Shown: positions 7,413 to 58,127, numbered from the stretch's first letter. The stretch is 64,000 nt of DNA from Acidobacteriota bacterium (GCA_965248845.1 CBDFKO010000002.1:968063-1032062); one strand, 5' to 3'. The notes: a model not told the origin generated them from the sequence alone. A program made the numbers and translations.

Positions 7413-8390
7413 CTAGTGTGACGCGGCGGAGTTCTCTTGTCTTATGGCTTTGGCGAGGATCTGGTCGGCGGACTTGAGCCAAAGGAAGGGCTCGGAGCCG
7501 TCGTTCCAGGCTCGGATGAAGCGGTGGATGGCCTTGATCAGGACATCGACGCTGCTGAAGCTGCCGCGCCGGACGGCCTGCGAGGTGAGGATGCCGAACC
7601 AGGTCTCCACCTGATTCATCCAGGAAGCGGAAGTGGGCGTGAAGTGACGCGTGAACCGCGGGTGTTGCTCGAACCAGGCCTCGACCTTGGGCTGGGTGTG
7701 GGTGCCGTAGTTGTCCAGCACCAGGTGGATCTCGCCCTCGGGGTAGGTGCGGTCGATCAAGCGTAGGAAGCGAAGAAACTCCTGGTGGCGGTGCCGCTGC
7801 ATGCAGGTGCCCAGGATCTCGGCGGTGGCTAGGTTCAACGCCGCGAACAGCGTCGTGGTGCCGTGGCGTCTGTAATCGTGGGTGCAGCGCTCTGGATCGC
7901 CGCGGCGCATGGGCAACATCGGCTGAGTCCGGTCCAGAGCCTGGATCTGGCTCTTCTCGTCCACGCACAGCACCAGCGCCCCCTGGGGCGGGTGCAGGTA
8001 CAGCCCCACGATGTCGGTGACCTTGTCCTGCAGGAGTGGATCGGCGGAGTACTTGAAGGTCTCGGTGCGATGGGGCTGCAGGCCGTTGCGCCGCCAGATC
8101 CGCAGGATCGTCGAAGGGCTCGCATCGACCTGTTTGGCGAGCCGCTGTGCGCTCCAATGGGTTCGGCTCGGAGGCCTCTCCAGGGTTGCGGCGATGATCT
8201 TGGCTTCCCGCACGGCGTCGTAGGTGCGCACACGACCAGAGCGCGGCTCGTCACCGAGATCCTCGATGCCCTGCTTGGCTGCGCGAGCGCGCCACATGCC
8301 CACGGTCTGTCGGGAGGTCTCGAGGCGCTCGGCGATCTGCTGGTTCTGCAGCCCCTGCTCGGCAAGCAGGATGATGTGGGCTCGGAACAC
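7413..8390 (-). CDS. IS630-family DDE transposase (catalytic part; GTG start)
   Basis: 325 aa with a DDE_3-like core ([12 protein letters not shown]...[10 protein letters not shown]...WMNQVE). About 55% identical to the second IS630 transposase at 56910..58001. Confidence 0.85.
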   Translation of the reverse strand: MFRAHIILLAEQGLQNQQIAERLETSRQTVGMWRARAAKQGIEDLGDEPRSGRVRTYDAVREAKIIAATLERPPSRTHWSAQRLAKQVDASPSTILRIWRRNGLQPHRTETFKYSADPLLQDKVTDIVGLYLHPPQGALVLCVDEKSQIQALDRTQPMLPMRRGDPERCTHDYRRHGTTTLFAALNLATAEILGTCMQRHRHQEFLRFLRLIDRTYPEGEIHLVLDNYGTHTQPKVEAWFEQHPRFTRHFTPTSASWMNQVETWFGILTSQAVRRGSFSSVDVLIKAIHRFIRAWNDGSEPFLWLKSADQILAKAIRQENSAASH

Positions 8391-8573
8391 CTGCCGCTGC
8401 TGTGAGCTCGGCGCGTCGATTACTCCCTGGAGCCGCTGCCCGCTGCTGCCCGGTCAACGAAATCTCCGGTGCTACCCTGGGCATCGTGGCCTCCTGTCCC
8501 GACAAGTTTACTGTCGAGACAAGGAAGTCTTAATATGCCATATAAGTCAAGCTAATTACGACGCGTTACACTA
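7414..8573. mobile_element. IS630-family insertion sequence (copy 1, ~1.16 kb) inserted into a CTAG between truB and rpsO, with TA duplication
   Basis: Flanks are tacTAgtgtgacgcgg on the left and cgcgttacacTAgcgcc on the right. Terminal inverted repeat gtgtgacgcg / gtgtaacgcg. Reconstructed empty site is aCTAGc. Confidence 0.8.
8391..8505 (-). other. N-terminal HTH segment of the IS630 copy-1 transposase, encoded in a different frame from the catalytic part (frameshift)
   Basis: MPRVAPEISLTGQQRAAAPGSNRRAELTAAAGV aligns to the N-terminus of copy 2 ([17 protein letters not shown]...[13 protein letters not shown]). The catalytic ORF lies in the -1 frame relative to it. Confidence 0.45.
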
Positions 8574-8670
8574 GCGCCGCGTCGTCGTCGAGCCCATTCG
8601 ACCCTTTGGCGAGCCGGCGGGCGCATACGTGATCGGCCTCGAATCCCGTCGCGACGAGGCCGCGACGGCG

Positions 8671-9600
8671 TCACTGCAGCACCACCCTCGGCTGCAACAT
8701 GCCCCCCGGGCGAATCTCCGCGGCCGCGATCATGGAGCCTTGCTGGTCCAGGATCCGTACCCAGCCCCCGGCCCCGGTGCCGGTGATGATGTCGCCGTCC
8801 GCACCGGCTCTGCGCTCGACGATGTGGCGGGGCTCGATGACGCCGCCGTTCCGGAGCCGGTGCAGCCCCTCCTCGCCGACCCGGGCCACAGGCCAGGTCG
8901 GAAGCATCTCGGCGCATGGAATCACAGCCGCCAGCAGATCGTCGCGCGAGACCTGCTCCAGAGAGTCCAGCAGCATGGCGCGGTCGAGGCCGAAGCCCCC
9001 GACTCCGAGACGACGCAGTGACTCCAAGTGCGAGGGATAGCCCAAGGCCTCGCCCAGGTCGCGGGCCAGCGTACGTACGTAGGTGCCCGAGCCGCAGTGC
9101 ACCCGCAGATCGATGCGCTCCCCTTCAACGGCGAGCATCTCCAGCGCGTGGATTTCCACACGAATCAGATCGTGCACCACGCTTTCGCCGCGTCGCGCCC
9201 GCTTGTACGCAGGCTGACCACGGATCTTCTTGGCCGAGTACACCGGCGGGATCTGCTCGATCGGCCCGCGAAAGCGCTCCAGTGCCTGCTCGATGGCCGT
9301 CGCGTCGAGCGGCTCGACCGTGACCGGCCCCTCCACGATCTCCCCCTCGGCGTCGTAAGTATCTGTCGCCCAGCCGAGGCGTACGCTGCAGTCGTACACC
9401 TTGTCTTGGTGCTGCAGGAAGCGACTCAGGCGTGTCGCACCACCGACACAGACGAGCAGCACCCCGGTAGCCTGTGGGTCGAGCGTGCCGGTGTGCCCAG
9501 CCCGCGCATCCAGCTGCTTGCGAACGCGCACGACAACGTCGTGGGAGGTCAGCCCTGCCGGCTTGTCGAGAACCAGCATCCCAGCGACGGCAAGGCTCAT
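8671..9600 (-). CDS. truB: tRNA pseudouridine(55) synthase
   Basis: GMLVLDKPAGLTSHDVV...HTGTLDPQATGVL with the catalytic Asp motif. Start at ATG 9600; the ORF-track extension to 9687 is not conserved. Confidence 0.9.
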   Translation of the reverse strand: MSLAVAGMLVLDKPAGLTSHDVVVRVRKQLDARAGHTGTLDPQATGVLLVCVGGATRLSRFLQHQDKVYDCSVRLGWATDTYDAEGEIVEGPVTVEPLDATAIEQALERFRGPIEQIPPVYSAKKIRGQPAYKRARRGESVVHDLIRVEIHALEMLAVEGERIDLRVHCGSGTYVRTLARDLGEALGYPSHLESLRRLGVGGFGLDRAMLLDSLEQVSRDDLLAAVIPCAEMLPTWPVARVGEEGLHRLRNGGVIEPRHIVERRAGADGDIITGTGAGGWVRILDQQGSMIAAAEIRPGGMLQPRVVLQ

Positions 9601-10571
9601 TCGTCGGCCCCTCCCGAGTCCAACACGGCCCGAATAGCGCTCATCAAGGACGCGTAGGCGTGCTCGAACTCGCCGAGGATCTGGCACCCAGCGGCGCGCC
9701 GGTGCCCCCCGCCACCGTGTGCCGACGCCAACTCGGCCACATCGATACTGCCGTCGGAGCGAAAGGATATGCGGAACACATCCGGCTCCGGCTCCTTGAA
9801 CAGCAGGCTGACACGAACCCCGGCGATTCCCTGTGCGTGGTTGATGACACCCTCGGTATCGGTCGTCCCCCGCGCCTCGAACTGATCCCGTCCCAACCGC
9901 ATCCAGGCGATCTGACCGCCTTGCTCCAGTGTCAGTGTCGTGAGCGCATCGCCCATCAACTGGACTCGACCAGCCGGCACGTTGCCAAAAACCGACGAGG
10001 CGATCGGCTCGGGGCGAGCACCCGCGGCCACCATGTCGGCCGCGAAGTAGAGCGCCGATGCGTCGGTATTGGAGTGACGGAACGATCCGGTGTCGGTGAG
10101 CAGCGCCACATACAACTGCGCAGCCATGTCGGCGTCGATCTCGGCCCCCAGCGCGCCGATCAGCTCGCCGACCATCATTCCGACCGCCGCGACCGACGCG
10201 TCGATCCAGTTGACATGCGCGTACATCCCGTTCTTGGTGTGGTGATCGATGTTGAGCGAGGGCAGCGCCTCGAGCCCTTCGAGGCCGGTCCGCGCGAAGT
10301 CGCTACACTCGACCAGAATCGCGCTGGCACACCCCTCCGGCGGCGCGCTCGCCGTCTCGATGCGCTCGGCACCCGGAAGCCAGAAGTGGCGATCGGGCAA
10401 GGCCTGGCCGATCACGACCCGCGTTCGCTTGCCGCGCTGCTCTAACGCCGCAGCCAAGGCCAACGAGGACCCCAGGGAATCCCCGTCAGGGTTCATATGG
10501 GATCCGATCACGAAGTCGTCGTGGGCCTCGAGCCAGGTGACCACGTCGGCGACGTCCTGCACGCTAGTCAT
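9597..10571 (-). CDS. nrnA: DHH-family phosphoesterase (NrnA-like oligoribonuclease/pAp phosphatase)
   Basis: DHH motifs (GSHMNPDGDSLGS, NIDHH) and a DHHA1 C-terminus (GGGHRRAAG). Start at ATG 10571; its stop overlaps the truB start in an ATGA arrangement. Confidence 0.8.
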   Translation of the reverse strand: MTSVQDVADVVTWLEAHDDFVIGSHMNPDGDSLGSSLALAAALEQRGKRTRVVIGQALPDRHFWLPGAERIETASAPPEGCASAILVECSDFARTGLEGLEALPSLNIDHHTKNGMYAHVNWIDASVAAVGMMVGELIGALGAEIDADMAAQLYVALLTDTGSFRHSNTDASALYFAADMVAAGARPEPIASSVFGNVPAGRVQLMGDALTTLTLEQGGQIAWMRLGRDQFEARGTTDTEGVINHAQGIAGVRVSLLFKEPEPDVFRISFRSDGSIDVAELASAHGGGGHRRAAGCQILGEFEHAYASLMSAIRAVLDSGGADE

Positions 10572-10959
10572 CGTCACCCCCCGCCTGACCGGTGTCGAAC
10601 GAGTCCGGCACCTCGACCTCGCGAACCGGATTCTCCTCCAGCAGATGCTCCAGCCGTTCGCTCGCGTCGAGGGTCCGATCCTCGATGAAGTGTAGCTCTG
10701 GGGCCTCACGCAGACGCAGGCGCGCGGCCACTTGACGGCGGAGGAAGGCTCCGGCCCACCGCACGGCCTGCATCGATTCCGCGCGCGCCTCCTCGTCACC
10801 GAAAGTGCTGACCCAGACCTTGGCGTGGTGCAGGTCGTTGCTCATCCGCACCTCGGTGACCGTCACGAAGCCGAGCCGAGGATCGCCGACCTCGCGCATG
10901 AGCAGATCCGCCAGCTCTCGCCGAATCTGATCCGCCACTCTGCGAGGCCGAAATGACAT
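10564..10959 (-). CDS. rbfA: Ribosome-binding factor A
   Basis: 131 aa with the RbfA KH-like core (RVADQIRRELADLL...FVTVTEVRMSNDLHHAKVWVS). Confidence 0.9.
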   Translation of the reverse strand: MSFRPRRVADQIRRELADLLMREVGDPRLGFVTVTEVRMSNDLHHAKVWVSTFGDEEARAESMQAVRWAGAFLRRQVAARLRLREAPELHFIEDRTLDASERLEHLLEENPVREVEVPDSFDTGQAGGDDD

Positions 10960-10963
10960 GGCT

Positions 10964-11157
10964 AGCAGGCCTTCGTGAAGCGCTGATGGATCTCGCGAGT
11001 ACGTCCTGCGGGCGAGGGCAAGGAGCGCCGACGAGTCGATGCGACAACATCGTCGAGGCGGCGCGACACCGCCACCATCCCGCTCGAACCCTCCGGGCAG
11101 CCGCCTGTACTCCTTGGCGGCGCAACCCGACCCATCACACTTTCACCACGGCCTGCT
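10964..11157. repeat. MITE-like element, copy A (~194 bp), CTAG at both ends with imperfect ~25-bp terminal inverted repeats; its left end supplies the rbfA SD-like GAAGG
   Basis: Left end CTAGcaggccttcgtgaagcgctgatgg; right end ccatcacactttcaccacggcctgCTAG. Internal 40-bp block cgccaccatcccgctcgaaccctccgggcagccgcc is shared with the 18302-18469 element. Confidence 0.65.
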
Positions 11158-11198
11158 AGCGGCCTAACCAGACCCATGAGAGCCTCACCAAGATCCTG

Positions 11199-11480
11199 CT
11201 AGAGGTACTCTGTCTCGACGCGCGTCAGCAGCGCCTCGGCGCTGCGCTCGACCTCGTCGACCAGCTTTTCGAACAACCCCTCCAACCGTGGCCGGCTGTT
11301 GGAAACCGAGACCGCCGCGATACACGAGCGCTGCCACAGGTCCTGGTAGGCAACCTCTGCCACCGCCACATTGAAGCGTGACGTCAGGCGGTGCAGGAGT
11401 CTCTTGATCACGCTGCGCTTGTCCTTGAGGCTGCGACAAGCGGGCAAGTGCAACTCTAGGGTGCAGGCCCCGATAACCAT
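11199..11480 (-). CDS. DUF503 (YlxP-like) protein of the infB operon
   Basis: MVIGACTLELHLPACRSLKDKRSVIKRLL is typical of DUF503; lies between infB and rbfA. Start at ATG 11480; stop TAG lies inside a CTAG. Confidence 0.8.
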   Translation of the reverse strand: MVIGACTLELHLPACRSLKDKRSVIKRLLHRLTSRFNVAVAEVAYQDLWQRSCIAAVSVSNSRPRLEGLFEKLVDEVERSAEALLTRVETEYL

Positions 11481-11502
11481 CACACTTTCACTACGGCCTC
11501 CT
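11457..11502. repeat. Miniature copy (B, ~46 bp) of the MITE family spanning the infB stop and the DUF503 start
   Basis: CTAGggtgcaggcc..ccatcacactttcactacggcctcCTAG; 27 of 29 nt identical to the copy-A right end. It encodes the last residues (SLSRRP) and TAG stop of infB, and the ATG of DUF503. Confidence 0.6.
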
Positions 11503-13641
11503 AGAGAGGCTCGGGCGGATCTCCTTGAGGACGAAGAACTCAATCATGTCGCCGACCTTGACATCGTTGAAGTTCTCGAGCGCGATACCGCACTCGTAAC
11601 CCTGGCCCACCTCGGCGACGTCGTCCTTGAAGCGTCGCAGCGATCTGACCTGCCCCTCGTAGACGATCCTCGAGTCCCGCACCAGACGCACCTTGGCGGC
11701 GCGTGTCACCTTGCCCCCGGTCACGTAGCAGCCGGCGATGGAGCCGATCCGGGGAATGCGGAAAGTCTCGCGCACCTCGGCCTGTCCGAGCTCCTCGTCC
11801 TCGAAGGTGGGGTCGAGCTTACCCACCATCGCCTGCTTGACATCGTCGATGAGCTGGTAAATGACCGTGTAGAGCCGAAGATCGACGCCGGCGCTGGCTG
11901 CGATATCCGCCACGCCACGCTCCGGGCGCACGTTGAATCCCACGATGATCGCCTCGGACGCCGAGGCCAGCAACACATCGTGCTCCGAGACGCCACCGAC
12001 CGCCGCGCGGATGATCTGCACCTCGACTTTGTCGCCTGACAGCTTGCCCAGCGCGTCACGCAGCGTCTCGGTTGAGCCCTGGGTGTCGGCCCTGAGCACG
12101 ACCGAAAGCTTCACCCGACCACCGGCTTCGATGCGCGCGTGCAGATCGGCGAGCGTCAGGCGCGTGCCACCGGCCAATGATTCGCGCCGCTGTTTGTCCC
12201 GCCGCAGTTCGGCCACCTTGCGCGCCAACGACGCTTGCTCGACGACCTGGAAGGAGTCGCCGGCTCCCGGCACGCCGGAGAAGCCGAGCACCTCGACCGC
12301 CGTCGCCGGTCCGGCCTCCTTCACGGGGTTCCCGTAGGAGTCGAACATGGCACGGACCTTGGCGCTCTCGGCGCCCGCGACCAGGCTGTCGGCTACGGCG
12401 AGCGTTCCTGCCTGGACCAGCACCGTCGCGACCGGGCCGCGTCGCCGGTCGAGCTCGGCCTCGAGCACGACGCCATGCGCCGCGATCTTGGGGTTCGCAC
12501 GCAACTCCAAGAGCTCCGACGACAGAATGATCATCTCGAGCAGCCCATCGAGGTTCTCTTTGGTCTTGGCCGAGACCGCAACGCAGACGGTATCGCCGCC
12601 CCAATCCTCCGGCGTCAAGTCACGGTCGACCAGCTGCTGCTTGGCTCGGTCGACGTTGGCCTCGGGACGATCGATCTTGTTGACCGCCACGATGATCGGC
12701 ACGTTGGCCGCGCGGGCGTGGTCGATGGCTTCCACGGTCTGCGGCATGACTCCGTCGTCGGCGGCGAGCACCAGGACCACCAGATCGGTGACCTGTGCGC
12801 CGCGGGCTCGCATTCGCGTGAAGGCCTCGTGGCCCGGGGTATCGATGAAGACGATTCGGTTGCCGTTCCATTCCACCTCGGACGCGCCGATGTGCTGCGT
12901 GATCCCGCCCGCCTCGCGCGCCACAACGTTTGTCTGCCGGATCGAATCGAGCAGATGGGTCTTGCCATGGTCGACGTGCCCCATGATGGTCACGACGGGC
13001 GCTCGGGGTTCGAGATCGTCGCTGCTACCGGTCTCGATTTCGCCGAGCAGGACCTCGTCCCGCCCCAACAACTGCAGGGCCACTCCGTGCTCGGCAGCGA
13101 TCTCCACGGCCACATCGGCATCCAGCGCCTGGTTCACGTTGGCCATGGCACCGCGGCCCATCAATTCGCGGATGATCTCCGCGGGGCTGATTCCCATGGC
13201 CTCGGCCAGTTGCCCGACCGTAGCACCCTCCTCGACCGCTACCGCGCGAGCCGGTGCCGCGGCTGCGGCAGGCTCCGGCTCGACCTCCTGCTCCGGCTCG
13301 GGCTCGGGCTCTGCGTCGGCTGCTGCCCCGGGCTCGGCCTCGGCCTCGGCCTCGAGTTCTCCTTCGGGCTCGGGCTCGGGCTCAACTTCGGGCTCGGGCT
13401 CGGGCCCTACTTCGGGCTCGGCCTCTGCCTCAGGCTCGATCTCAATCTCAGCTTCAGGCCCGGCTACCAGGGGCTCGGGGCCTTGCCCCGATTCTCCGGC
13501 AAGCGCCTGCCGCACGCGAGCCGCTTCCTCCTCGGACACCGAGTTGGCATGGCTCTTGACCGCTACGCCCAGCTCGTTGAGGGCCTGGAGGACCACCTTG
13601 CTCTCGACGTCCAGTTCCCGGGCGATCTCGTAAACCCGCAT
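11491..13641 (-). CDS. infB: Translation initiation factor IF-2
   Basis: 716 aa with the GTPase domain ([17 protein letters not shown]) and IF2 C-terminal domains. Short N-terminal region rich in EP/EA repeats. Confidence 0.95.
13254..13445. repeat. Tandem GC-rich coding repeats (ctcggg/ctcggc units) encoding the [12 protein letters not shown] tract at the IF-2 N-terminus
   Basis: Visible tandem hexamer/dodecamer periodicity inside infB. Confidence 0.6.
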
Positions 13642-13720
13642 TCCTGTGAATCCTTCCGCTTCCTGTTGCCGCTAACTACGCGTTCCGCTCGATGTTTCAG
13701 GCTTCGATGCCGAAGCGCTC

Positions 13721-15313
13721 TCAGAATCGTCCATCGTCCGAGTCCTCACCCAGCGCCGGCTCCTGGTCAGCCGCAGCGTCGGGCTCCGCAACCTCGGCGG
13801 CCCCCGATTCATCGGCCTCGGTGACCTCGGGCTCCGCAACCTCGGTGGCTTGCGGCTCGGCGGGCTCCGGCTCGGCGACCTCGGTAACCTCCGGCTCGGC
13901 GGCCTCGGCGGGCTCCAGCTCGGCAACCTCCGTGGTCTCCGGCTCGGCAGCCTCGGTAACCTCCGGCTCAGCAGCCTCGGTGTCCTCCGGTTCCACGGGC
14001 GCGATGGCGACCTCGGGGGCCTCCTGCGTCCCCTCGATCAGGTCACGCGCTTGCTGATAGATCTTCAACGCCGACTTGGGTCCGATACCGGCCACCGCGA
14101 GGAGCGCATCCTCACCGGCCAGCACGATCGAGCGTGCCGTCTCGAAGCCGGCCTCGCGCAAGGCGGCGGCTGCGGTCGCGCCCACCGCCTCTAGCTGCTC
14201 GACACCCGGTGCCGCCGAGGTCGGCGCGGCTACCGGCTTTTTCTCCGTATCTGCGGCCGGCTGTCCGGCGCCGCCGACATCGATCTTGCAGCCGAGCAGC
14301 TTGCCGGCCAAGCGCACGTTCTGCCCGCGCTTGCCGATGGCAAGGGAAAGTTGGTCCTCGTTCACGATGACCTGAAGATGCTGTGCGGCCTCTCCGGTCA
14401 CTTCGTCGACTACGTCGACCTCCTTCACATGATTGACCCTTGCCGGCTTGAGCGCGTTGATCGCGAACTGGAAGCGATCCGGCGACCACTCAACGATGTC
14501 GATCTTCTCGCCGCGCAGCTCACGGATGATGGCCTGGACCCGAGAGCCCCGCATGCCGACGCACGCGCCGACGGGGTCGACGTCCGGCTCGTTGGACTGC
14601 ACCGCCACCTTGGCGCGGTCACCGCCTTCGCGCACGGCGCCCTTGATCACGACCGTCTGGTCGTAGATCTCGGGGACCTCCATCTCGAACAGCCGCTTGA
14701 GCAACTCGGGGCTGTTGCGCGACACTACGACCATCGGTCCGCGCGTGGCCTGCAGCACCTCGATGATGACCAGCCGAATGCGGTCGCCGATGTTGTAGTG
14801 TTCCGCCCGCGATTGCTCGCGCCGCGGCAAGATGGCCTCGGTTCGGCCCAGATCGACCATCATGTCACCGCGCTCGAAGCGCTTGACGATCCCGGTCAGG
14901 AGCTCGCCGACCCGGTCGACATACTCCACATATATATTGTCGCGCTCAGCATCGCGGACTTTCTGGAAAATGACCTGCCGGGCCGCATGGGCCGCGATGC
15001 GCCCGAGCTGATCGGTGGACATCGAGCGCCGTAGCTCGTCACCCACTTTCGGGTCGTCCATTCCCTCGGCTCGCGCCTCCTCGACGGTCAGCTCCGCAAG
15101 CGGGTCTTCGACCACTTCGACGACACGTTTCACCGCGGCCAGCTCGACCTCGCCGGTCTCAGGGTTCAGCGAAGCCTCGAGGTAGTCCTCGGTCCCATAG
15201 AACTTCTGGGCCGCTACCGCCATGGCCTCTTCGACCGCCTCGATGATGACCTGCGGCTCGATGTTTTTCTCACGACCGATCTGCTCGATCGTCTGGAGTA
15301 GCATCTGGGCCAT
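13721..15313 (-). CDS. nusA: Transcription termination/antitermination factor NusA with an acidic repeat C-terminal extension
   Basis: NusA N-terminal, S1 and two KH domains, then (EPEVTEAA)-like octapeptide repeats at the C-terminus. Confidence 0.95.
   Translation of the reverse strand: MAQMLLQTIEQIGREKNIEPQVIIEAVEEAMAVAAQKFYGTEDYLEASLNPETGEVELAAVKRVVEVVEDPLAELTVEEARAEGMDDPKVGDELRRSMSTDQLGRIAAHAARQVIFQKVRDAERDNIYVEYVDRVGELLTGIVKRFERGDMMVDLGRTEAILPRREQSRAEHYNIGDRIRLVIIEVLQATRGPMVVVSRNSPELLKRLFEMEVPEIYDQTVVIKGAVREGGDRAKVAVQSNEPDVDPVGACVGMRGSRVQAIIRELRGEKIDIVEWSPDRFQFAINALKPARVNHVKEVDVVDEVTGEAAQHLQVIVNEDQLSLAIGKRGQNVRLAGKLLGCKIDVGGAGQPAADTEKKPVAAPTSAAPGVEQLEAVGATAAAALREAGFETARSIVLAGEDALLAVAGIGPKSALKIYQQARDLIEGTQEAPEVAIAPVEPEDTEAAEPEVTEAAEPETTEVAELEPAEAAEPEVTEVAEPEPAEPQATEVAEPEVTEADESGAAEVAEPDAAADQEPALGEDSDDGRF
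13790..13995. repeat. Tandem ~24-bp coding repeats at the nusA 3' end (acidic octapeptide repeats)
   Basis: Repeating cctcggtaacctccggctcggc(a/g)g units. Confidence 0.6.
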
Positions 15314-15354
15314 CTCTTTGTTCCTATTCCTACTCGCGTCTGGGCGGACCGGAC

Positions 15355-15813
15355 TCAGATCTCGACCTCGAGCCGCGCTTCGGCGACCTGGTCCAGTAGA
15401 ATCTCGACCTGCGTACCCGCCTCGTCGTCCATCAGCACAACGCCGCGCCGGAAGCCCCGCAGGGTCCCCCGAAACAGGCTGCGCTCACCGATCGGGGCCC
15501 GGGTCTGAATACGGATTTGGCGGCCCGCGAACCGTCGATAGTCGGCCGCCACCAGCAAGAACTCGTCCAATCCAGGGGAGGAGACCTCGAGGGTGTAGGC
15601 GTGCGGAACGATGTCCTCGACGTCGAGCGTCGCCGACAACTGCCGACTCACCGAGGCGCAGTCCTCAACATCGACGCCTCCGTTCGTATCGAGGATCACC
15701 TGGAGCACCCAGCCCCGACTGCCGGTCGCGAAACGGACCTCGACCAGCTCGCAGCCCTGACGGCGCGCGGCGCGCTCGGCAAGAGGTGCGACGGCCTCCG
15801 CTACCGCCCCCAT
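15355..15813 (-). CDS. rimP: Ribosome maturation factor RimP
   Basis: LVEVRFATGSRGWVLQVILD...YTLEVSSPGLDE. Start at ATG 15813; first gene of the nusA-infB operon. Confidence 0.85.
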   Translation of the reverse strand: MGAVAEAVAPLAERAARRQGCELVEVRFATGSRGWVLQVILDTNGGVDVEDCASVSRQLSATLDVEDIVPHAYTLEVSSPGLDEFLLVAADYRRFAGRQIRIQTRAPIGERSLFRGTLRGFRRGVVLMDDEAGTQVEILLDQVAEARLEVEI

Positions 15814-16050
15814 TGATGTCGTTCTGGCCGGTGCTGGCACCGTCTTGCTCCTCTGGACAAAAAAAAGCGGGCACGAGGGCCCACTTCGCTCGCAGTACCC
15901 GAATTGCCGCAAACTCTACCAAGAACTCCGGTCCGCTTCAACGAGCCCGAGCTAGCAGGCCGTGGTAATTCTCTGACGGCGTTTGCGTCGCCGTACAGCT
16001 TCATTCAAGATCGCGGTCCGCCCCACAACCTGCCTCCTGCCGGAGTGCCT

Positions 16051-17223: not shown

Positions 17224-17305
17224 CAACCGGGCGGATTGCCGGGGCCATTGCCGGGGTCCTATCATGGAGCCACGTTCCGTCCGCCAACTATCACGCGAGA
17301 TTCAG

Positions 17306-17518: not shown

Positions 17519-17522
17519 CGCG

Positions 17523-18302
17523 GTGAGCACGGCCGAGCCTCCGGGCCTGCCGGAGACAGCTTCGGCTGCCGGCCGGCGAGAGAGTCTGCCCGAGATGTCC
17601 CTCATGGATCATCTCACCGAGCTGCGCGGGCGTTTGCTGGTCTCCGTGATCGCCGTCGTGCTCGGCGCCATCGGCGCCTGGTTCTACGCCGACGAGCTGT
17701 ACCGGCTGCTGACCCGACCCGTCGTGGAAATCTTGCCGGAACAGGACAATCGGCTGGCGTTCCTGTCGTTGACCGAGCCCTTCGTCCTCTACCTCAAGGT
17801 GGCCGGCCTGGCTGGGCTGTTCGCGGCCTCACCGGTCGTCATCTACCAGGGTTGGATGTTCGTGGCCCCCGGTCTGTACCGAAACGAGAAGCAGCACGCT
17901 TTGCCCGTCGTAGCTGCCTCCGCCGCGTGCTTTTTCGCCGGCGGCGCTTTCGGTTACTTCGTGCTGTTCCCGGTGATGGCCAACTTCTTCCTCGATCTCG
18001 GCTCCGACTTTCGCCAGGTTCTTACCGTGAACCGTCTCTTCGGCTTCCTCGTGCGAACGCTGCTGGGGTGCGCCCTCGTGTTCGAATGGCCCATCGTGGT
18101 CTTCTTTCTGGCACGCCTGGGGATCCTGACGGCCGGGGCAATGTGGAGCGGTCTCGGCTACGCCATCGTCGCGATCTTCGTCATTGCCGCCGTGGTCACG
18201 CCCACCCCCGACGCGCCCACACAGATTATCCTGGCCACGCCGATGCTATTGCTGTACTTGCTCGGTATCGGGATCGCCTGGTTGGTGCAGCCGCGCGACT
18301 AG
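17523..18302 (+). CDS. tatC: Sec-independent protein translocase TatC
   Basis: Six-TM TatC fold with the HLTELRGRL motif. Start is either GTG 17523 or ATG 17595; stop TAG lies inside the CTAG at 18299-18302. Confidence 0.9.
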   Translation: MSTAEPPGLPETASAAGRRESLPEMSLMDHLTELRGRLLVSVIAVVLGAIGAWFYADELYRLLTRPVVEILPEQDNRLAFLSLTEPFVLYLKVAGLAGLFAASPVVIYQGWMFVAPGLYRNEKQHALPVVAASAACFFAGGAFGYFVLFPVMANFFLDLGSDFRQVLTVNRLFGFLVRTLLGCALVFEWPIVVFFLARLGILTAGAMWSGLGYAIVAIFVIAAVVTPTPDAPTQIILATPMLLLYLLGIGIAWLVQPRD

Positions 18303-18469
18303 TGCTCCTGTACACAAGTACGGTGACGTTTGTTGGAGCGGGATGGTGGCGGATGCCAGGCGCACCGACGAGGCGATGTGAGCGCATCGTCGAGCGAGGT
18401 GCAACGCCGCAGACGCCACCATCCCGCTCCAACCCTCCGGGCAGCCGCCGTACTTGTGTACAGGAGCAC
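18302..18469. repeat. 168-bp nested-palindrome MITE with 22-bp perfect terminal inverted repeats that resemble IS630 ends
   Basis: Terminal repeats gtgctcctgtacacaagtacgg / ccgtacttgtgtacaggagcac, similar to the IS630 copy-2 end TAgtctcctgtaacag. Inner 20-bp inverted repeat gttggagcgggatggtggcg / cgccaccatcccgctccaac. Left flank is the CTAG of the tatC stop. Shares a ~65-bp internal block with MITE A. Confidence 0.65.
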
Positions 18470-18478
18470 TGGTGTAAG

Positions 18479-25326: not shown

Positions 25327-25506
25327 GCGGCGACTATAGCAGGCCGTGCTGAGGCGCTGATGCGCCTCGGCTGCCCGGCCGGGACTCAGCTGCAGACGAA
25401 TCGCTCACAACGTACATTTTCCTCTCTGGTGCGAATCCGAAACGACCCGTCACGACCCCGGCCACCCGCATTACTCGAGCGGGCGGGCCGAATTGCGGGC
25501 GGCGCC

Positions 25507-28341: not shown

Positions 28342-28384
28342 GAGGGTCTCCCAGGAGGCCGTGGTGAAAGTGCGATGGGTCTGG

Positions 28385-40372: not shown

Positions 40373-40534
40373 GAGCAGGCCATGGCGAGGTGTGATGCGT
40401 CGGGGCAAGTAGGTTCTACGGCCGAGGGCAAGGCTCGGCAGAGCCGGCGCAGGCACATCGTCGAGAGCGTGCCGCGAGGCATCTGCGCCCCTGGCGGCGT
40501 AACCAGCCCATCACACTTTCACCACGGCCTGGTA
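40373..40534. repeat. MITE-like element, copy C (~160 bp), in the divergent promoter region between the methyltransferase gene and the glycosyltransferase cluster
   Basis: Left end gagcaggccatggcgaggtgtgatgcg; right end cccatcacactttcaccacggcctggTAG; interior homologous to copy A (cggccgagggcaagg, acatcgtcgag). Confidence 0.6.
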
Positions 40535-40600
40535 GGAGACCGTGCTAGAGTTCAGCCTTCTTGGGGCGCCCCTGCTCCGCCTCCCATCTGCCCGCTCCCG

Positions 40601-47515: not shown

Positions 47516-48475
47516 ATGAGTGAACGCACAGAGACAGTGCTGATCACAGGTGGTGCCGGATTCATCGGCTCGCACCTCGCCGAGCATCTGCTGGGCCAGG
47601 GTGCCCGCGTGATCGTCATGGACAACTTGCTCACCGGCACCGCGAGCAACGTAGCGCGTTTCGCCAACCGCGACTACCTGTTCATCCAGCACGACGTCAC
47701 CAACTACATGTTCATCGATGAGCCGGTCGACTACGTCCTCCATTTCGCCTCGCCGGCGTCCCCGATCGACTATCTCCGCTACCCGATCCAGACGCTCAAG
47801 GTCGGTGCGCTGGGGACGCACAAGGCACTCGGCCTGGCGCGCCACAAGAACGCGGTCTTCATGTTGGCCTCGACCTCCGAGGTGTACGGCGACCCCCAGA
47901 TCAACCCGCAGCCCGAGTCCTACTGGGGGCACGTGAATCCGATCGGCCCGCGCGGCGTCTACGACGAGGCCAAGCGCTTTGGCGAGGCGATCACCATGGC
48001 CTACCACCGCAGCCACGGGCTGCGGACACGGATCGCGCGAATCTTCAACACCTACGGGCCTCGAATGCGGGTCGACGATGGACGGGCGGTGCCCAACTTC
48101 CTCATGCAGGCGCTTACGGCCGAGCCGATCACGGTGTACGGGGACGGCTCCCAGACGCGTTCCTTCTGCTACGTCGAGGACACGGTGCGTGGCCTCGTGG
48201 CACTGATGTGCTCGGCGGTCAGCGAACCGGTGAACGTCGGAAACCCGGCCGAGATCTCCATTCTGGACATCGCCCGGTTGATCGTCGACAAGACCGAGTC
48301 GAACAGCGAGATCGTGTTTCACGATCTTCCGGTCGACGATCCCAAGGTGCGACGCCCCGACATCGGCCGCGCGCACGCGGAGCTGGGTTGGGACCCGCAG
48401 ATCGACCTCGCCGAAGGTCTCGAGCTCACGATTCCCTGGTTCCGCCAGCAGCTCGCCAAGCGCCAGACCGCCTAG
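47516..48475 (+). CDS. UDP-glucuronate decarboxylase (UDP-xylose synthase), SDR family
   Basis: [10 protein letters not shown] Rossmann motif, catalytic YDEAKR and UXS-type conservation. Stop TAG lies within the CTAG that was targeted by IS5. Confidence 0.9.
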
Positions 48476-49780
48476 CAGGCTGCTGAAAAACGGCTCGAGC
48501 GCGCCATTTTGGGCTGGATCGTCTCGATCACGGTGAGTTAGCGGGGCGGCGAGTGCGAGTGCGAGGCTCTGGTTGCCGGCCGCGCCGGTATTTCTTGGGC
48601 GGTTAGTCCCGATATCGTCACGTCGCCCCCTGGAGGTTGCGCATTCTGACCAGGTTGAAGGCAGCGGCGGTGAAGGTGAACATCCAATCGACGCGTTCGG
48701 TGCCTCGGTGCCGCGTCTTGCGCATCAGCCCGACCGTCTTGGCCCATCCGAACATCTGCTCGACGAGCTTGCGTTTCCTTTGACTGACCTGGTAGCCGGG
48801 GTGGCGGGTTGTGCGCCGGTCGATGGCGCTGCGCCGATTGGTGTCGTTCTGTGCGACGTGCGGGGTGATGTTCCGATCTCGAAGCTTACGGACGCACTCG
48901 CGTGTGTCGTAGCCCTTGTCGGCCGCCAAGGTCACCCTGCGGTTACCGGAAATCTTGTCCGCCATTTGCACCGCCGCCTCTCGTTCCGCTGTCCCGGAAG
49001 CGATCGTTACGCATGCCTTGGTTGCTAACCCGTGGCGGTTGTCGATCATCAGGTGCCCCATGTAGCAGAGCTTCGACTCGGCTCCCCTACTTTTCTTGTA
49101 CAGGCGTGCGTCCGGATCGGTCCTGGAGGCGTGAGTATCGTTTGTGCGCCGTTGTTTGCGAAAATCGACGCTCGGGTTGCTGCCGCCCTCATCGGAGTCG
49201 CTCTGATCCTTCGGCTTGAAGCTCTTGTGTGAGGCCCACGCCTCGATCAGCGTACCGTCCACCGTGAAGTGCTCATCCGATAGCAGGCTGCGGCGCCGTG
49301 CCTCCGCCAGCACTTCCTGGAAGAACACCTCGGCGACCTCGCCTCCCAACACTCGATCCCGGTTCTTCGTGAACACCGTCGCATCCCACACCAGATCGTC
49401 CATGTTCAGGCCCACAAACCACCGGAACAGCAGGTTGTAGTCGAGCTGCTCCATCAGCATGCGCTCGGAGCGAATCGTGTACAGCACCTGCAGCAGCAGC
49501 GCCCGCAGCAGTTTCTCCGGCGGGATCGACGGTCGCCCCGTGTGCGAGTACAGCTTCTCGAACAGCGGCGACATCCGCCCCAGCACATCGTTGACGATCC
49601 TCAGCAGCGGCCGCAGCGGATGCTCTTTCGGTACTCGCTGCTCCGGAGATACGTAACTAAAGGCGGCCACCTGTCCCGCGTCCTCACCACGCATCTGCTC
49701 ACCTCGTTGATGCTTCGGTTTTTGCCGCGGGCTGCGTGGTTCAGAATCTACTCGAACAAGGGGAGTTTTTCAGCAGCCTG
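48476..49780. mobile_element. IS5-family insertion sequence (1305 bp) with 16-bp perfect terminal inverted repeats and a 4-bp CTAG target duplication
   Basis: Terminal repeats caggctgctgaaaaac / gtttttcagcagcctg; CTAG at 48472-48475 and 49781-49784. Confidence 0.85.
48618..49694 (-). CDS. IS5-family DDE transposase
   Basis: 358 aa with DDE_Tnp_1-like motifs (HPLRPLLRIVND..., DKGYD). Confidence 0.9.
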   Translation of the reverse strand: MRGEDAGQVAAFSYVSPEQRVPKEHPLRPLLRIVNDVLGRMSPLFEKLYSHTGRPSIPPEKLLRALLLQVLYTIRSERMLMEQLDYNLLFRWFVGLNMDDLVWDATVFTKNRDRVLGGEVAEVFFQEVLAEARRRSLLSDEHFTVDGTLIEAWASHKSFKPKDQSDSDEGGSNPSVDFRKQRRTNDTHASRTDPDARLYKKSRGAESKLCYMGHLMIDNRHGLATKACVTIASGTAEREAAVQMADKISGNRRVTLAADKGYDTRECVRKLRDRNITPHVAQNDTNRRSAIDRRTTRHPGYQVSQRKRKLVEQMFGWAKTVGLMRKTRHRGTERVDWMFTFTAAAFNLVRMRNLQGAT

Positions 49781-49804
49781 CTAGGAGACCGTGCTTCGGC
49801 CCCT

Positions 49805-50923: not shown

Positions 50924-51618
50924 GCCGCCGCGAGCCGACAGTCAGCTTGCTGCAGCGCCGTCCGCGCCAGAACTTCGGAGGCGTCGATGACCGGCAGCGG
51001 CACAGCCTGCGGATCGACCGCGAGAGGCAGCTCGGTGCAACCCAGAACCAATGCCTGAGCGCCCGCCGCAACGAGCGCCTCGATAGAATCCATGAGACGC
51101 GGATCGCGCCCCGTTCGCCCGCCCTTGATGGCACGAATCGCCGCCATGACGTTGGCCTGGGGCTCCGCGGCGAGGGCAACCGGAACCAACCCCTGCGCCT
51201 CCAGGCAACGATCGTACAGCCCGAGATGGACTGTCCCGGTCGCCGCCAGGATCGCTACGTGCGTGCCCGGAGCCACCCGTCGGGCCACCTCGCGTGCGGC
51301 CAGGTCGATCATGTCGAGTACTGGGATGCCAACTGCTTCGCGCACCGCCTCCAGGTAGGCATGTGCCGAATTGCAAGGGATCGTGATCAGATCGGCTCCG
51401 GCACCCTCGAGCACCCGCGCCGCCGCGCCTAGCGCGGGTGCCGGATCGGCCCCGTCGCCCGTCAGATGACCCGTCCGGTCGGGCGTCTGTGTGGCGTTGT
51501 ACACCACGCACGGAGGATGGTCCTGGTCCTTCCCGGCACCCACCATGCGTACCAGCCGTGCGAAGAAGTCGACCGTTGCTACCGGCCCCATGCCGCCCAG
51601 AACTCCGATCGTCTTCAC
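50920..51618 (-). CDS. Aspartate/glutamate racemase family protein
   Basis: MKTIGVLGGMGP...IPCNSAH...LGCTE motifs of Asp/Glu racemases. Confidence 0.8.
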   Translation of the reverse strand: MKTIGVLGGMGPVATVDFFARLVRMVGAGKDQDHPPCVVYNATQTPDRTGHLTGDGADPAPALGAAARVLEGAGADLITIPCNSAHAYLEAVREAVGIPVLDMIDLAAREVARRVAPGTHVAILAATGTVHLGLYDRCLEAQGLVPVALAAEPQANVMAAIRAIKGGRTGRDPRLMDSIEALVAAGAQALVLGCTELPLAVDPQAVPLPVIDASEVLARTALQQADCRLAAA

Positions 51619-51619
51619 G

Positions 51620-54516: not shown

Positions 54517-54523
54517 TGCGATC

Positions 54524-54907
54524 TCACTCCTCGATGTGTGAGCGGTAGGCGTCGGCGCTCATCAACGCGGCCACCTCGGCAGCGTCGTCCATCTTGATGC
54601 GCACCATCCAGCCGGCCCCGTGTGGATCGTCGTTGACGGTCTCGGGCGCATCTACGAGCTCCTCGTTGACGACAACGATCTCGCCGGCGACCGGCGCGTA
54701 CAGGTCGGAGACCGCCTTGACGGACTCGATCGTCCCGAAAGGGTCTCCCCTGCCAAAGCGGCTCCCGGGCTCGGGGAGCTCGACAAAAACTACGTCGCCG
54801 AGCTCGTCCTGGGCGTGGTGCGTGATCCCTACCGTGCACACCTCGCCGTCGACGGAGATCCACTCGTGCTCATTGGAATAGACGTAACTGTCGGGGTAGT
54901 CGGCCAT
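54524..54907 (-). CDS. gcvH: Glycine cleavage system H protein
   Basis: Lipoyl-lysine motif ESVKAVSDLYAP; start at ATG 54907. Confidence 0.9.
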   Translation of the reverse strand: MADYPDSYVYSNEHEWISVDGEVCTVGITHHAQDELGDVVFVELPEPGSRFGRGDPFGTIESVKAVSDLYAPVAGEIVVVNEELVDAPETVNDDPHGAGWMVRIKMDDAAEVAALMSADAYRSHIEE

Positions 54908-54966
54908 GAGCTCCTCCGCTGCGCCGGCCCGGCCACGATCGCGTGTCACGAACTGGGCGCGGCCAC

Positions 54967-56064
<1,098 letters not shown>

Positions 56065-56137
56065 GGGACCTCCCGCGGGACGGAGCAGGAATGGGCGAAC
56101 AGACGGGCGTCGGGCCGACGCGACGCCTCAAGTTACC

Positions 56138-56174
56138 ATAGCAGGCTGTGGTGCAAGTGTGATGGGCCTGGTAG
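56138..56174. repeat. Micro copy (~37 bp) of the MITE family in the gcvT leader
   Basis: aTAGcaggctgtggtgcaagtgtgatgggcctggTAG, i.e. left terminal motif plus the right tip. Confidence 0.5.
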
Positions 56175-56231
56175 TTCTGCCAACGGCGCCTCACGGCGCC
56201 TTCCACCGCGCGGAAGAGGCCGCAGAAAAGC

Positions 56232-56870
56232 CTACCGGACCCGCTCCCAGCCGCTGGTAGCGGCGCGGAATCGCCACACGGCGACACGGCCGGTCGCCCC
56301 ATACAAGCGCACCGCCGCAGCGTCCCCGTAAGCGTTGTGGAGATAGACCGTACCGCTACTCGTCGACCCTTCAGGGGCAACGCTCAGCCGATCGAGACGG
56401 CCGAACGCGACGCCATCCGCGGGCCGGGCGCCGGCCAGCGACGGCACCCCGGCCGGTAGACCCGCCACGATCCCGGGAAAGTCGCGTTCGAGACGAAACA
56501 CTCGACCCGTCGGCCTATCGATGTTCCGACGCAGGTCGTCCGATCGGAGGCCGTCCCCATCGCCATCCTCGAGCTCGTGCCATTCCAGACCGTCCACCGT
56601 GTAGAACTGAAGGCCGAAGTGCCGGCCGTGGGCGCTCGCTCTCGCTTGCAAGACGGCGACCTGCGTCGCAATCGCGCCGCAGGCCGACAGGAGCTGTTGG
56701 CTCTGGCGCCATCGGACCCAGGCGGGAGCAGCCGTCTGCACGAGTAGCCCTACGATCGCGAGGCACACGGTCAACTCGAGCAGTGAGACGCCCGCTGCCC
56801 GGAAGGCTACGCCGCCAGCGGCGCGTCCTTGACGGTGGCACCGTAACCAGACCCACCACACTTTCACCAC
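56232..56870 (-). CDS. Orphan prepilin-type N-terminal cleavage/methylation domain protein (GspH/FimT-like minor pseudopilin); 5' end lies within a MITE copy
   Basis: AAG|VSLLELTVCLAIVGLL prepilin motif with Glu at +5; GspH-like C-terminus. No other T2SS/T4P genes nearby. The GTG start falls inside the repeat caccacactttcacc. Confidence 0.55.
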   Translation of the reverse strand: MVKVWWVWLRCHRQGRAAGGVAFRAAGVSLLELTVCLAIVGLLVQTAAPAWVRWRQSQQLLSACGAIATQVAVLQARASAHGRHFGLQFYTVDGLEWHELEDGDGDGLRSDDLRRNIDRPTGRVFRLERDFPGIVAGLPAGVPSLAGARPADGVAFGRLDRLSVAPEGSTSSGTVYLHNAYGDAAAVRLYGATGRVAVWRFRAATSGWERVR

Positions 56871-56879
56871 GGTCTCCTA
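56850..56879. repeat. MITE-family right-end copy (D) immediately left of IS630 copy 2
   Basis: gacccaccacactttcaccacggtctccTA. Confidence 0.6.
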
Positions 56880-58080
56880 GTCTCCTGTAACAGTGGTTCG
56901 CAGCATAAGTCATGAGGCGTGTTGGTCGAGAGTGCGCTGTGCGAACCGGGCGATGGGAGCCAGGATCTCGTCGGCACTCTTGCACCACACGAACGGCTCG
57001 GGGGTCTCGTTGTGCGCATCGATGAACTCCCAGATAGCTGCCACCAGCGCTGCGACACTGCAATGAGATCCGCGGCGGATCTGCTTGTTGGTCAGCTCGG
57101 CGAACCAGCGCTCGACCTGGTTGAGCCACGAGGCATAGGTAGGGGTGAAGTGCAGGTGGAAGCGTGGCCGTTTGGCCAGCCAGGTGTGGATCATCGGGCT
57201 CTTGTGGGTGCCGTAGTTGTCCAGGACCAGATGCACCTGCAGTTGGGCAGGCACCTGCTCATCGATCATGTCCAGGAACTTGCGGAACTCCACCGAGCGA
57301 TGCCGGCGGTGAGTCTGAGCCAGAACGGTTCCCGTCTTGATGTCCAAGGCGGCGAACAACGATGTCGTTCCATGGCGTTGGTAGTCATGCGTGCGCCGCT
57401 CCATCTGGCCGGGCCGCATGGGTAGCAACGGCTGTGTCCGATCCAGTGCCTGGATCTGGCTCTTTTCGTCCACGCACAGCACCACCGCGTGCTCGGGCGG
57501 GTTGACATACAACCCGACGACGTCGCGCACCTTGTCCACCAGTAACGGGTCGGGCGAGAGCTTGAACGTCTCGGTGCGGTGTGGCTTGAGACCAAAGGCA
57601 CGCCAGATCCGGCTGATTGTGGCGTGGCTCAAGCCGGTCGCCTTGGCCATCGACCGGGTGGACCAGTGGGTGGCCCCACGCGGGGTACTCTCCAAGGTGC
57701 GGATGATCACCTGTTCGACCTGGGCGTCCGTGATCTTGCGCGGCGCTCCGGGTCGCGGTTCGTCGTACAGGCCATCGAGACGATCCGACACGAAGCGTGC
57801 CCGCCATTTGCCCACGGTGCTCGGTGACAGCTGCAAGCGCTTGGCCACGGCCTTGTTGTCGTGTCCCTGCGCGCAGGCCAGGACGATGCGCGCGCGGCGT
57901 GCCGGGGCGGGGGCGGTGCGGGATCGATGCGCCAACGAGTTCAGGTGTGCCTCCTCCTGTGGCGTCAGCGTTAAGGGAGCCTTGGGTCGACCGGTGCGCA
58001 TGCGACAATCTCCTGTGCTCAGCTACAGGTTCAACATATGCACACTATAACTTATATCAGTTATTTCTGATACAGGAGAC
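56880..58080. mobile_element. IS630-family insertion sequence (copy 2, 1201 bp) inserted at the TA of a CTAG between two MITE arms
   Basis: TA duplications at 56878-56879 and 58081-58082. Terminal inverted repeat gtctcctgtaacag / gtctcctgtatcag with AT-rich subterminal sequence. Confidence 0.85.
56910..58001 (-). CDS. IS630-family DDE transposase (full length, N-terminal HTH plus DDE core)
   Basis: 363 aa; aligns with the copy-1 transposase over its whole length. Confidence 0.9.
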
Positions 58081-58127
58081 TAGCGGCCCGTGGTGAAAGT
58101 GTGATTAAGCGGCCCGCCGCTTGGTAG
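58081..58127. repeat. MITE-family left-end/micro copy (E) immediately right of IS630 copy 2
   Basis: TAgcggcccgtggtgaaagtgtgatt...cttggTAG. Together with D it forms a 16-bp perfect palindrome, cacactttcaccacgg / ccgtggtgaaagtgtg, centred on the TA that was duplicated. Confidence 0.6.

Follow-up and report, generated by a model that had tools for sequence, protein, structure and literature searches.

Insertion sequences (ISs) of the IS630 and IS5 families are known to target CTAG, and the depletion of this tetranucleotide is equally well established. Elements of the IS630/Tc1-mariner group are moved by cut and paste into TA, which is duplicated, and IS630 prefers a TA located within CTAG (PMC2170065; PMC2577343). 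For IS630, a 2-bp target-site duplication (TSD) and the target CTAG are listed (PMC2577343 Table 1); for this target, PMC2170065 cites Tenzen and Ohtsubo (1991). IS5 duplicates Py-T-A-Pu, most often CTAG, which has been called an under-represented tetranucleotide (PMC5493358). [quoted passage not shown] In the present work, a 64,000-nt stretch of the genome of an Acidobacteriota bacterium (GCA_965248845.1, CBDFKO010000002.1:968063-1032062), referred to below as the window, was analysed. It contains two IS630 elements (IS630#1 and IS630#2), one IS5-family element and a number of MITE pieces, and an earlier note made from the sequence alone had proposed that three transposable-element families all use CTAG here. 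All of them do use CTAG, but they are in fact two transposase families accompanied by non-autonomous derivatives. With a probability of roughly 85%, the window belongs to an Acidobacteriota chromosome that has been colonised by cut-and-paste DDE transposons preferring CTAG, the insertions of which accumulate on C-TAG stop codons. The insertion sites agree with the described preferences of both families (IS630, PMC2577343 Table 1; IS5, PMC5493358).

The two IS630 copies resemble IS630 of Shigella sonnei and the IS630/Tc1-mariner elements in having one DDE_3 transposase with N-terminal helix-turn-helix (HTH) domains, short terminal inverted repeats (TIRs), a TA duplication and a preference for CTAG. 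Their transposases match the NF033545 model with 278.5 bits (IS630#1) and 292.5 bits (IS630#2) at a cut-off of 100. The Pfam domains found across the two proteins are DDE_3, HTH_32, HTH_29 and HTH_23 (DDE_3 and HTH domains in IS630#1), and the TIRs of both copies are imperfect and 15-21 nt long. IS630#1 has TA on either side (7414-7415 and 8572-8573), and the outer bases are C7413 and G8574, the rebuilt target being aCTAGc; for IS630#2, the TA copies are at 56878-56879 and 58081-58082 and the outer bases are C56877 and G58083. The earlier description of both copies as TA-flanked within CTAG was thus borne out, the outer bases being C and G in both. A 2-bp size of the duplication is presumed for both copies from the family literature, since the palindromic CTAG reads the same after a 2-bp and a 4-bp duplication.

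Unlike IS630 of S. sonnei, the window copies belong to environmental Acidobacteriota clades and their transposases are 55% identical to each other at the protein level; copy #1 is frameshifted and has a stop built from the TA duplication and the target G, and copy #2 and its relatives often adjoin MITE ends. The transposase frame of IS630#1 crosses the terminal repeat, and its TAG stop (7415-7413) is formed by the duplicated TA together with target base 7413 beside it, so that the length of the transposase C-terminus varies with the insertion site. The frameshift that this frame requires (Table 1) may be either programmed or a sign of decay. IS630#1 is located ~100 bp downstream of the truB stop, that is, not at a gene end, and IS630#2 lies between two inverted MITE ends (inverted repeat I3).

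The flank preference was confirmed in relatives of both copies. For IS630#1, 80 metagenome loci encoding transposases with 51-62% identity were used, and an unbiased search for the best inverted repeat gave TIRs in 65 of them. In this clade, C-TA-G was found at 49 of 51 scorable left junctions and at 49 of 51 right junctions, against a background of ~25%. In ten loci containing relatives of IS630#2 (76% identical), the arrangement C-TA-(GTGTCCTGGAACAG...CTGTTACAGGACAC)-TA-G was present at 20/20 junctions, and a MITE TIR adjoins about half of the distinct junctions, as it does for IS630#2 in the window.

Several other features of the IS630 relatives were recorded. Their copies often adjoin or nest in palindromic elements with ends starting GCAG(G/C)C (loci L099-L108, L200, L205, L162 and L183); the copy in L205 is located between two inverted GCAGGCTGTTGAAATT ends, and that in L200 is inside an element bearing the IS5-like TIR GCAGCCCGTTGAAAAACTCC. 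In L101 and L107, one host flank adjoins opposite ends of the IS630 relative. The 4.36-Mb contig of the source genome contains at least seven IS630#2-type transposase variants, some of them truncated.

The IS5-family element shares with IS5 of Escherichia coli a DUF772 + DDE_Tnp_1 transposase and 16-nt TIRs, and its flanks fit the Py-T-A-Pu duplication of IS5, mostly CTAG (PMC5493358), the 4-bp size of which is not separable here from 2 bp. According to the Pfam analysis, the transposase contains the DUF772 (PF05598) and DDE_Tnp_1 (PF01609) domains, and it matches the NF033581 model with 284 bits (cut-off 140). CTAG is present on both sides of the element (48472-48475 and 49781-49784), and the TAG stop (48473-48475) of the UDP-xylose synthase (UXS) gene is within the left CTAG copy. 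The CTAG flanks and the UXS stop were correctly predicted, and the predicted 4-bp duplication is indistinguishable from a TA duplication at CTAG. In contrast to IS5 of E. coli, which has the TIR GGAAGGTGCGAA, the window element has the TIR CAGGCTGCTGAAAAAC, the eight copies with at least 88% identity are all in CTAG, and the element is expanded in the source genome.

Among the IS5 relatives, CTAG was found on both sides at 6/6 distinct sites for 94%-identical copies and at the single site of the 88%-identical copy in OZ244217.1. A 4-bp YTAR duplication fits the CTAG flanks of the window copy and of 7/7 relatives, and a TA duplication with G...C termini would read alike. An 81%-identical relative also has CTAA and TTAG left flanks, which fit YTAR, but the contigs are apparently chimeric; pairing of the left and right flanks of these 81%-identical relatives failed, one flank joining different partners between samples. 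In the source genome, dozens of distinct IS5 transposase variants (94-100% identical; clusters P0131-P0220) occur on the 4.36-Mb and 0.735-Mb contigs, i.e., the element has expanded greatly. The short sequence GAGACCGTG at 49785-49793, which adjoins the IS5 element of the window, is a MITE-end-like remnant.

The main MITE family was characterised in 98 Acidobacteriota loci (L001-L098, 713 kb), below called the related loci. The canonical element is ~275 bp long; derivatives of 48-71 bp are two TIRs placed back to back, and those of 138-195 bp represent one arm. With a length of 48-277 bp, TIRs of 29-31 nt, TA flanks and many copies in more than 98 loci across Acidobacteriota metagenome-assembled genomes (MAGs), the family corresponds to the definition of MITEs. 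Its TIR begins CAGGCCGTGG..TGAAAG / GCAGGCC, and the bounding motif is GCAGGCCGTGGTGAAAG. A scan for the terminal repeat, with one genome taken per species, gave among the matches listed almost exclusively Acidobacteriota MAGs; pnp and nusA of the window show ~76% DNA identity to those of two MITE-bearing related loci. Mobility of the family was demonstrated by comparison of the filled locus L082 (...AAACGC-TA-[MITE]-TA-GACTT...) with the empty orthologous locus L094 (...AAACGG-TA-GAATT...), a pair that shows mobility rather than duplication size, since at an (N)TAG palindromic target the 2-bp and 4-bp models predict one sequence.

At 158 MITE ends, the four positions that follow ...CACGGCCTG hold C in 94%, T in 94%, A in 85% and G in 76% of cases, and the sequence is random beyond them; exact CTAG adjoins 95 of the 158 ends. 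Two explanations of these flanks were compared. It is possible, although on balance unlikely, that the main MITE is an IS5-type derivative moved by an IS5 transposase with a 4-bp CTAG duplication, the TA mechanism being confined to the IS630 copies and MITE-B (Table 1). With such an origin, the junction bases inside and outside should be conserved equally and the flanks should agree, whereas the inner C was found at 148/158 ends and the outer G at 120/158 (p = 1.5e-5), and for the inner T against the outer A the counts were 4 and 19 (p = 0.003). Moreover, of the 38 paired ends, about ten disagree at the junction base that comes first or last (CTAG...CTAT and GTAG...CTAG, for example). In all of them it is solely an outer base that departs, the inner one (G on the left, C on the right) being canonical. 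This asymmetry, together with the outer-only departures, argues for duplication of TA by an element with G...C termini rather than a 4-bp duplication.

The terminal sequences speak in part for an IS5 origin. The MITE TIR CAGGCCGTGG agrees with the IS5 TIRs CAGGCTGCTGAAAAAC of the window and CAGGCTGCGGAAAAAC of OZ244217.1 at 8/10 positions at the tip, both differences being transitions; the likeness stops after ~15 nt and depends on a 2-nt gap. MITEs of IS5 origin with insertions at CTAG/YTAA have been described (MITEPsy1, PMC3189936), the 88%-identical IS5 is present in OZ244217.1, a genome rich in the MITE, and a further palindromic element, in L200, has an IS5-like TIR. In Pseudomonas syringae, MITEPsy1, which derives from the IS5-family ISPsy2, is similar to the present MITE in its location at CTAG/YTAA, and its TIR holds a ...CTGAAAAAG.. 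motif like the TIR of the window IS5 (PMC3189936). It has a 4-nt duplication, in contrast to the 2-nt TA duplication indicated by the flank statistics of the Acidobacteriota MITE. The IS630 TIRs observed start GTGT.., GTCTCC.. or GTGTCC.., unlike GCAGGCC of the main MITE, with which they did not match. The main MITE seems to behave like an IS630 element in duplicating TA and is not a proven IS630 derivative; a transposase of the IS630 type would then move it.

Similar to RUP of Streptococcus pneumoniae (IS630-Spn1) and the plant Stowaway elements, the MITEs described here are non-coding, a few hundred bp long or less, multicopy, bounded by TIRs and a TA duplication, and land beside or inside mobile elements (PMC2229807). 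They differ from these in that no autonomous partner with matching TIRs was found for the main MITE, in the 275-bp Y-shaped fold with two covarying arms and in the strong preference for outer C/G.

It could be argued that the association with CTAG is a coincidence, or an artefact of the G...C ends without any real target preference, because three of the four bases of each junction come from the TA duplication and the element terminus, and the window IS630 copies give just four informative outer bases. This explanation is refuted by the flanks of the MITE, IS630 and IS5 copies. Outer C/G is found at 96% of the junctions in the IS630#1 clade and at 76% of the MITE ends (G at 120/158), against a background of 25-35% (p < 1e-26). 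The IS5 copies have full CTAG at 8/8 sites, and a random 4-mer would be CTAG with a probability below 1e-3. Furthermore, only 4.1% of the TA dinucleotides of the window are within CTAG, and the junctions are therefore not explained by chance. The pattern was also seen in copies elsewhere, of IS630#1 (49/51 and 49/51), IS630#2 (20/20), IS5 (7/7) and the MITE (95/158).

CTAG is the most depleted palindromic 4-mer of the window, with 42 occurrences against 90.7 expected from a second-order Markov model (ratio 0.46), followed by TTAA (0.71) and GTAC (0.79). Transposon junctions account for 11 of the 42 firmly, and for 15 if weak remnants are included. Roughly one in four to one in three CTAG sites of the window would therefore owe their existence to the duplication of TA by elements with G...C ends. 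In the 713 kb of related loci the ratio was 0.57, and MITE junctions made up 92 of 446 CTAG sites.

The stop codons were then considered as insertion sites. TAG terminates 18-19 of the 47 genes in the window and ~42% of the genes in the related loci (crude open reading frame (ORF) calls), mostly as G-TAG; such unusually common TAG stops provide a larger pool of TA-G targets at gene ends. Five host genes of the window end in C-TAG, and four of them (frr, DUF503, tatC and UXS) do so exactly on a junction of a transposable element; the fifth, rbfA, overlaps the ATG of the next gene (ATGACTAG) and is unoccupied. The occupied stops consist of the retained TA and the terminal base of the element or, for IS5, are provided by the left CTAG copy. 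In particular, the frr stop (958-956) is formed by TA and the last base of the mini-MITE 911-956, the tatC stop (18300-18302) by TA and the first base of MITE-B, and the DUF503 stop (11201-11199) is provided by CTAG 11199-11202 at the junction of the fragment 11160-11199. Of the gene-end insertions named in the earlier note, these and UXS proved to be exact, but the stop of infB (11493-11491) is 10 nt inside the solo TIR 11475-11500 and not at CTAG. The priA stop (28387-28385) is likewise inside the TIR 28354-28391, so the last codons of both genes come from MITE sequence. The CTAG at 11456 forms part of the DUF503 coding sequence; no transposable element has a boundary there.

In the related loci, a gene's 3' end is located within -30 to +300 nt of 56 MITE ends that face it, and at 23 of these the offset is 0, the TA being shared with the stop codon. 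MITEs were found on 18 of 93 putative C-TAG stops (19%) against 3 of 122 G-TAG stops (2.5%; Fisher p ~4e-5), and on none of 42 A-TAG stops, in accordance with the idea that the coincidence of CTAG with C-TAG stops accounts for gene-end insertions. All eight occupied C-TAG ORFs that were scanned proved to be real genes (among them gyrA, an FtsX/MacB permease, MttB and biotin carboxylase). The Pfam match ends no more than 14 residues before the C terminus in four of these (MttB, 4; DUF418, 6; FtsX, 10; Peptidase_S9, 14); for gyrA, the C-terminal check refers to the best-scoring repeat alone. In the window, the UXS protein has a C terminus of normal length, and a syntenic locus without the IS, with UXS followed by convergent aroB, is present in the relative GCA_966190425.1. 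The normal UXS C terminus, the UXS-aroB synteny and the real ORFs indicate insertions at natural stops and not truncations.

The features of the window are listed in Table 1. Pieces of the main MITE family were found by nhmmer with a profile built from full-length copies elsewhere.

Table 1. Mobile elements of the window and the genes associated with them (positions counted from the first nucleotide of the window)
Feature	Position	Strand	Characteristics
Mini-MITE, two TIR halves	911-956		left junction decayed to CCAG (908-911); right junction CTAG (956-959)
IS630#1	7416-8571	-	1156 bp; TIRs GTGTGACGCGGCGG / GTGTAACGCGTCGT, imperfect
IS630#1 transposase frame	7413-8484	-	three-frame translation, ORF list; frameshift required near 8420-8440
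MITE-A	10965-11156		one-arm derivative of main family; nhmmer E=1e-13; between DUF503 stop and rbfA start
Degenerate MITE right-end fragment	11160-11199		repeat family D8, 68-74% identity; weak remnant
Solo MITE TIR, infB/DUF503	11475-11500		23/26 matches to TIR consensus; nhmmer E=0.003; junction CTAG 11501-11504
TIR-start remnant GCAGGCCGTGGTAA	15955-15968		repeat family D5, inverted repeat I16; beside CTAG 15952, rimP-PALP divergent region; weak, 14 nt only
MITE-B	18302-18469		TIRs GTGCTCCTGTACAC, IS630#2-like; inverted repeat I11
Solo MITE TIR at priA 3' end	28354-28391		nhmmer E=5e-7; junction decayed to CCAG (28351-28354)
Decayed one-arm MITE	40375-40532		nhmmer E=9e-8; junctions CGAG, GTAG; upstream of glycosyltransferase cluster
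UDP-glucuronate decarboxylase (UDP-xylose synthase, UXS) family gene	47516-48475	+	Pfam Epimerase, GDP_Man_Dehyd; close homologues named UDP-glucuronic acid decarboxylase
IS5-family element	48476-49780	-	1305 bp; perfect 16-nt TIR CAGGCTGCTGAAAAAC at both ends; transposase gene 48618-49694
Solo MITE TIR, gcvT/pseudopilin gene	56141-56174		nhmmer E=3e-5; junction ATAG
MITE right-end TIR	56838-56877		nhmmer E=2e-7; adjoins left TA of IS630#2, CTAG
IS630#2	56880-58080	-	1201 bp; TIR GTCTCCTGTA(A/T)CAG; transposase gene 56910-58001
MITE left-end TIR	58083-58105		inverted repeats I3, I12; nhmmer E=0.014; adjoins right TA of IS630#2, CTAG

The MITE pieces adjoin CTAG, as had been noticed earlier, or a form of it decayed at one base. 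In MITE-B, CTAG is present at the left end alone, where TA is found at 18300-18301; on the right, TA has decayed to TG at 18470-18471 (CTGG). Its TIR GTGCTCCTGTACAC matches GTCTCCTGTAACAG of IS630#2 at 12/14 positions with one indel (a single copy, modest support). By this TIR match and the TA flank, MITE-B is, with modest confidence, a putative IS630-derived MITE. MITE-A is flanked by TA at 10963-10964 and 11157-11158, with CTAG at both junctions; its end is 3 nt from the rbfA ATG, where the TIR reads GAAGG (consensus CACGG) and is Shine-Dalgarno-like.

The decayed junctions CCAG and CTGG (908-911, 18469-18472 and 28351-28354) are those expected if the T:G mismatches of CTAG were repaired towards CC(A/T)GG in the very-short-patch style. 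In the related loci, CTGG or CCAG represent 10 of 63 non-CTAG MITE junctions, which is suggestive only of such a repair-like process behind junction decay. Three 11-mers made up of the MITE TIR's first 10 nt and C (GCAGGCCGTGC or GGAGACCGTGC) are located at 25337-25349, 40533-40548 and 49782-49796, each with TA before it and one with TA after it as well; in the second case, the MITE copy 40375-40532 is followed by the 11-mer GGAGACCGTGC and then by CTAG 40545. These few instances may be extreme deletion derivatives or footprints of repair or excision. The region 56141-56877 (737 bp) was considered as a cargo-carrying element and rejected, as it consists of a host gene for a pseudopilin with a separate MITE remnant on each side. 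Its ORF (56232-56870, minus strand) has a prepilin-type N-terminal segment, LLELTVCLAIVGLL, with weak matches to GspH and prepilin-dependent protein models, and no Pfam match above the threshold was found for this ORF.

Structure prediction shows that the canonical 275-bp MITE (L057:5583-5857) folds as a Y, with a TIR stem of 29 bp and two hairpin arms, each of ~100 nt (-195 kcal/mol, z = -15). In the alignment of 18 full copies, compensatory double changes were found in 32 of 99 predicted pairs, nearly all of them in the arms (one in the TIR stem). MITE-B also folds stably (z = -12.7) and carries one internal hairpin arm common to the main family, despite unrelated TIRs; the arm module is shared by the main MITE copies and MITE-B (18302-18469; 10965-11156). 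The Y-shaped structure with covarying arms common to MITEs with different TIRs may be needed for their spread, or it may be used by the host at gene 3' ends.

The stability of the full copies (z = -15 and -12.7), the arm pairing kept by compensatory changes and the location of many copies directly downstream of genes would also be expected of host-selected elements similar to repetitive extragenic palindromes (REPs) or terminators, for which CTAG borders would be incidental. This is improbable. The elements have 29-31-bp TIRs, TA flanks and presence/absence polymorphism, and copies are also found in 5' regions (15955, 25339 and 56141, as well as others upstream of rbfA and the glycosyltransferase cluster). 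The short pieces at gene ends in the window fold no better than shuffled sequences (z = -0.9, -0.4 and +1.0), contain no U tract and have no Rfam match, and terminator function is rejected for them. In addition, REPs are 20-40 bp long, bear GTAG or CGTC tags and have no TIR or TSD (PMC3733652), whereas the elements described here reach 277 bp and have TIRs and TA flanks and no GTAG tag.

A further-reaching interpretation, put forward tentatively and at slightly less than an even chance, is that TA-duplicating elements with G...C ends use C-TAG stops as safe docking sites. Each insertion would rebuild the stop and double CTAG, and the junctions so formed would serve as landing sites for IS630, IS5 and MITE elements arriving later. 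Transposons would then have made 11-15 of the 42 CTAG sites in the window (a quarter to a third) and a fifth of those in the related loci. Several points weigh against the main interpretation, that of a chromosome colonised by CTAG-preferring transposons. At IS630-type junctions, the outer base alone informs on the target, the other three bases of CTAG being the duplication and the element; with a palindromic CTAG, 2-bp and 4-bp duplications are identical, and the assignment of a TA duplication to the MITE is drawn from the non-CTAG sites, which are a minority. In its terminal 10 nt, the main MITE TIR is nearer to the IS5-type TIR than to any IS630 TIR. When the 98 MITE loci were searched by tblastn with the three window transposases, no transposase gene, and hence no autonomous partner of the main MITE, was found in them. 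The related loci were chosen for their MITE content, which biases absolute occupancy rates, and their genes were called crudely, from ORFs and G+C content at third codon positions (GC3). Finally, several metagenome contigs around the IS elements appear to be chimeric.

Alongside the element anatomy, flank statistics, stop-codon enrichment and presence/absence polymorphism observed here, a mechanism can be proposed in which the strand-transfer chemistry would be that of the IS630 and IS5 families. The two IS630 elements, MITE-B and, judging by its flank statistics, the main 275-bp MITE would integrate at the central TA of C-TA-G and duplicate this TA. As IS630-type elements begin with G and end with C, CTAG would be created at both new junctions, and one target would become two. 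Such doubling would lead to elements placed end to end, as with IS630#2 between two MITE ends; other examples of stacking are a MITE next to a MITE and the IS5 element beside a MITE-end-like remnant. IS5 would make a 4-bp staggered cut at YTAR, here CTAG, and duplicate all four bases. Insertions within genes would presumably be removed by purifying selection, and a gene end with C-TAG would be a target that leaves the reading frame intact, since TA and the G of the element, or the left CTAG copy of IS5, rebuild TAG. With CTAG rare, intragenic insertions purged and TAG rebuilt, insertions would pile up on stop codons.

The window has a G+C content of 66.8%, and the presence of lpxB indicates a Gram-negative organism. 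Its genes include frr, pyrH, tsf, rpsB, rpsI, rplM, pnp, rpsO, truB, a DHH phosphoesterase gene, rbfA, DUF503, infB, nusA, rimP, tatC, recJ, accA, dnaE, priA, coaBC, gmk and lpxB among the core genes, as well as a glycosyltransferase cluster, aroB, gcvPHT and others. Mobile DNA is located at three intergenic junctions of the essential operon nusA-infB-DUF503-rbfA-DHH-truB-rpsO-pnp (7416-15912), namely, the solo TIR at infB/DUF503, MITE-A with the degenerate fragment at DUF503/rbfA, and IS630#1 at truB/rpsO. Short tandem GC-rich repeat blocks with periods of 12 and ~24 nt were found at 13240-13450 and 13745-14017, in the regions encoding the N-terminal part of infB and the C-terminal part of nusA. 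A scan of the window for Rfam families and tRNAs gave no match.

The results restate known target preferences and alter no principle; new here are the MITE family, apparently undescribed, and the measured size of the stop-codon effect. For annotation, they account for the ends of ISs and MITEs that are found on stop codons and beside each other in this Acidobacteriota lineage, and the TIR signature GCAGGCCGTGGTGAAAGTGTGATGGGTCTGG marks the apparently undescribed MITE family, which is widespread in Acidobacteriota MAGs. A common, rare palindromic target combined with G...C termini can steer several transposon families into the same harmless sites, which in this window are within the essential translation operon nusA-infB-rbfA-truB-rpsO-pnp.

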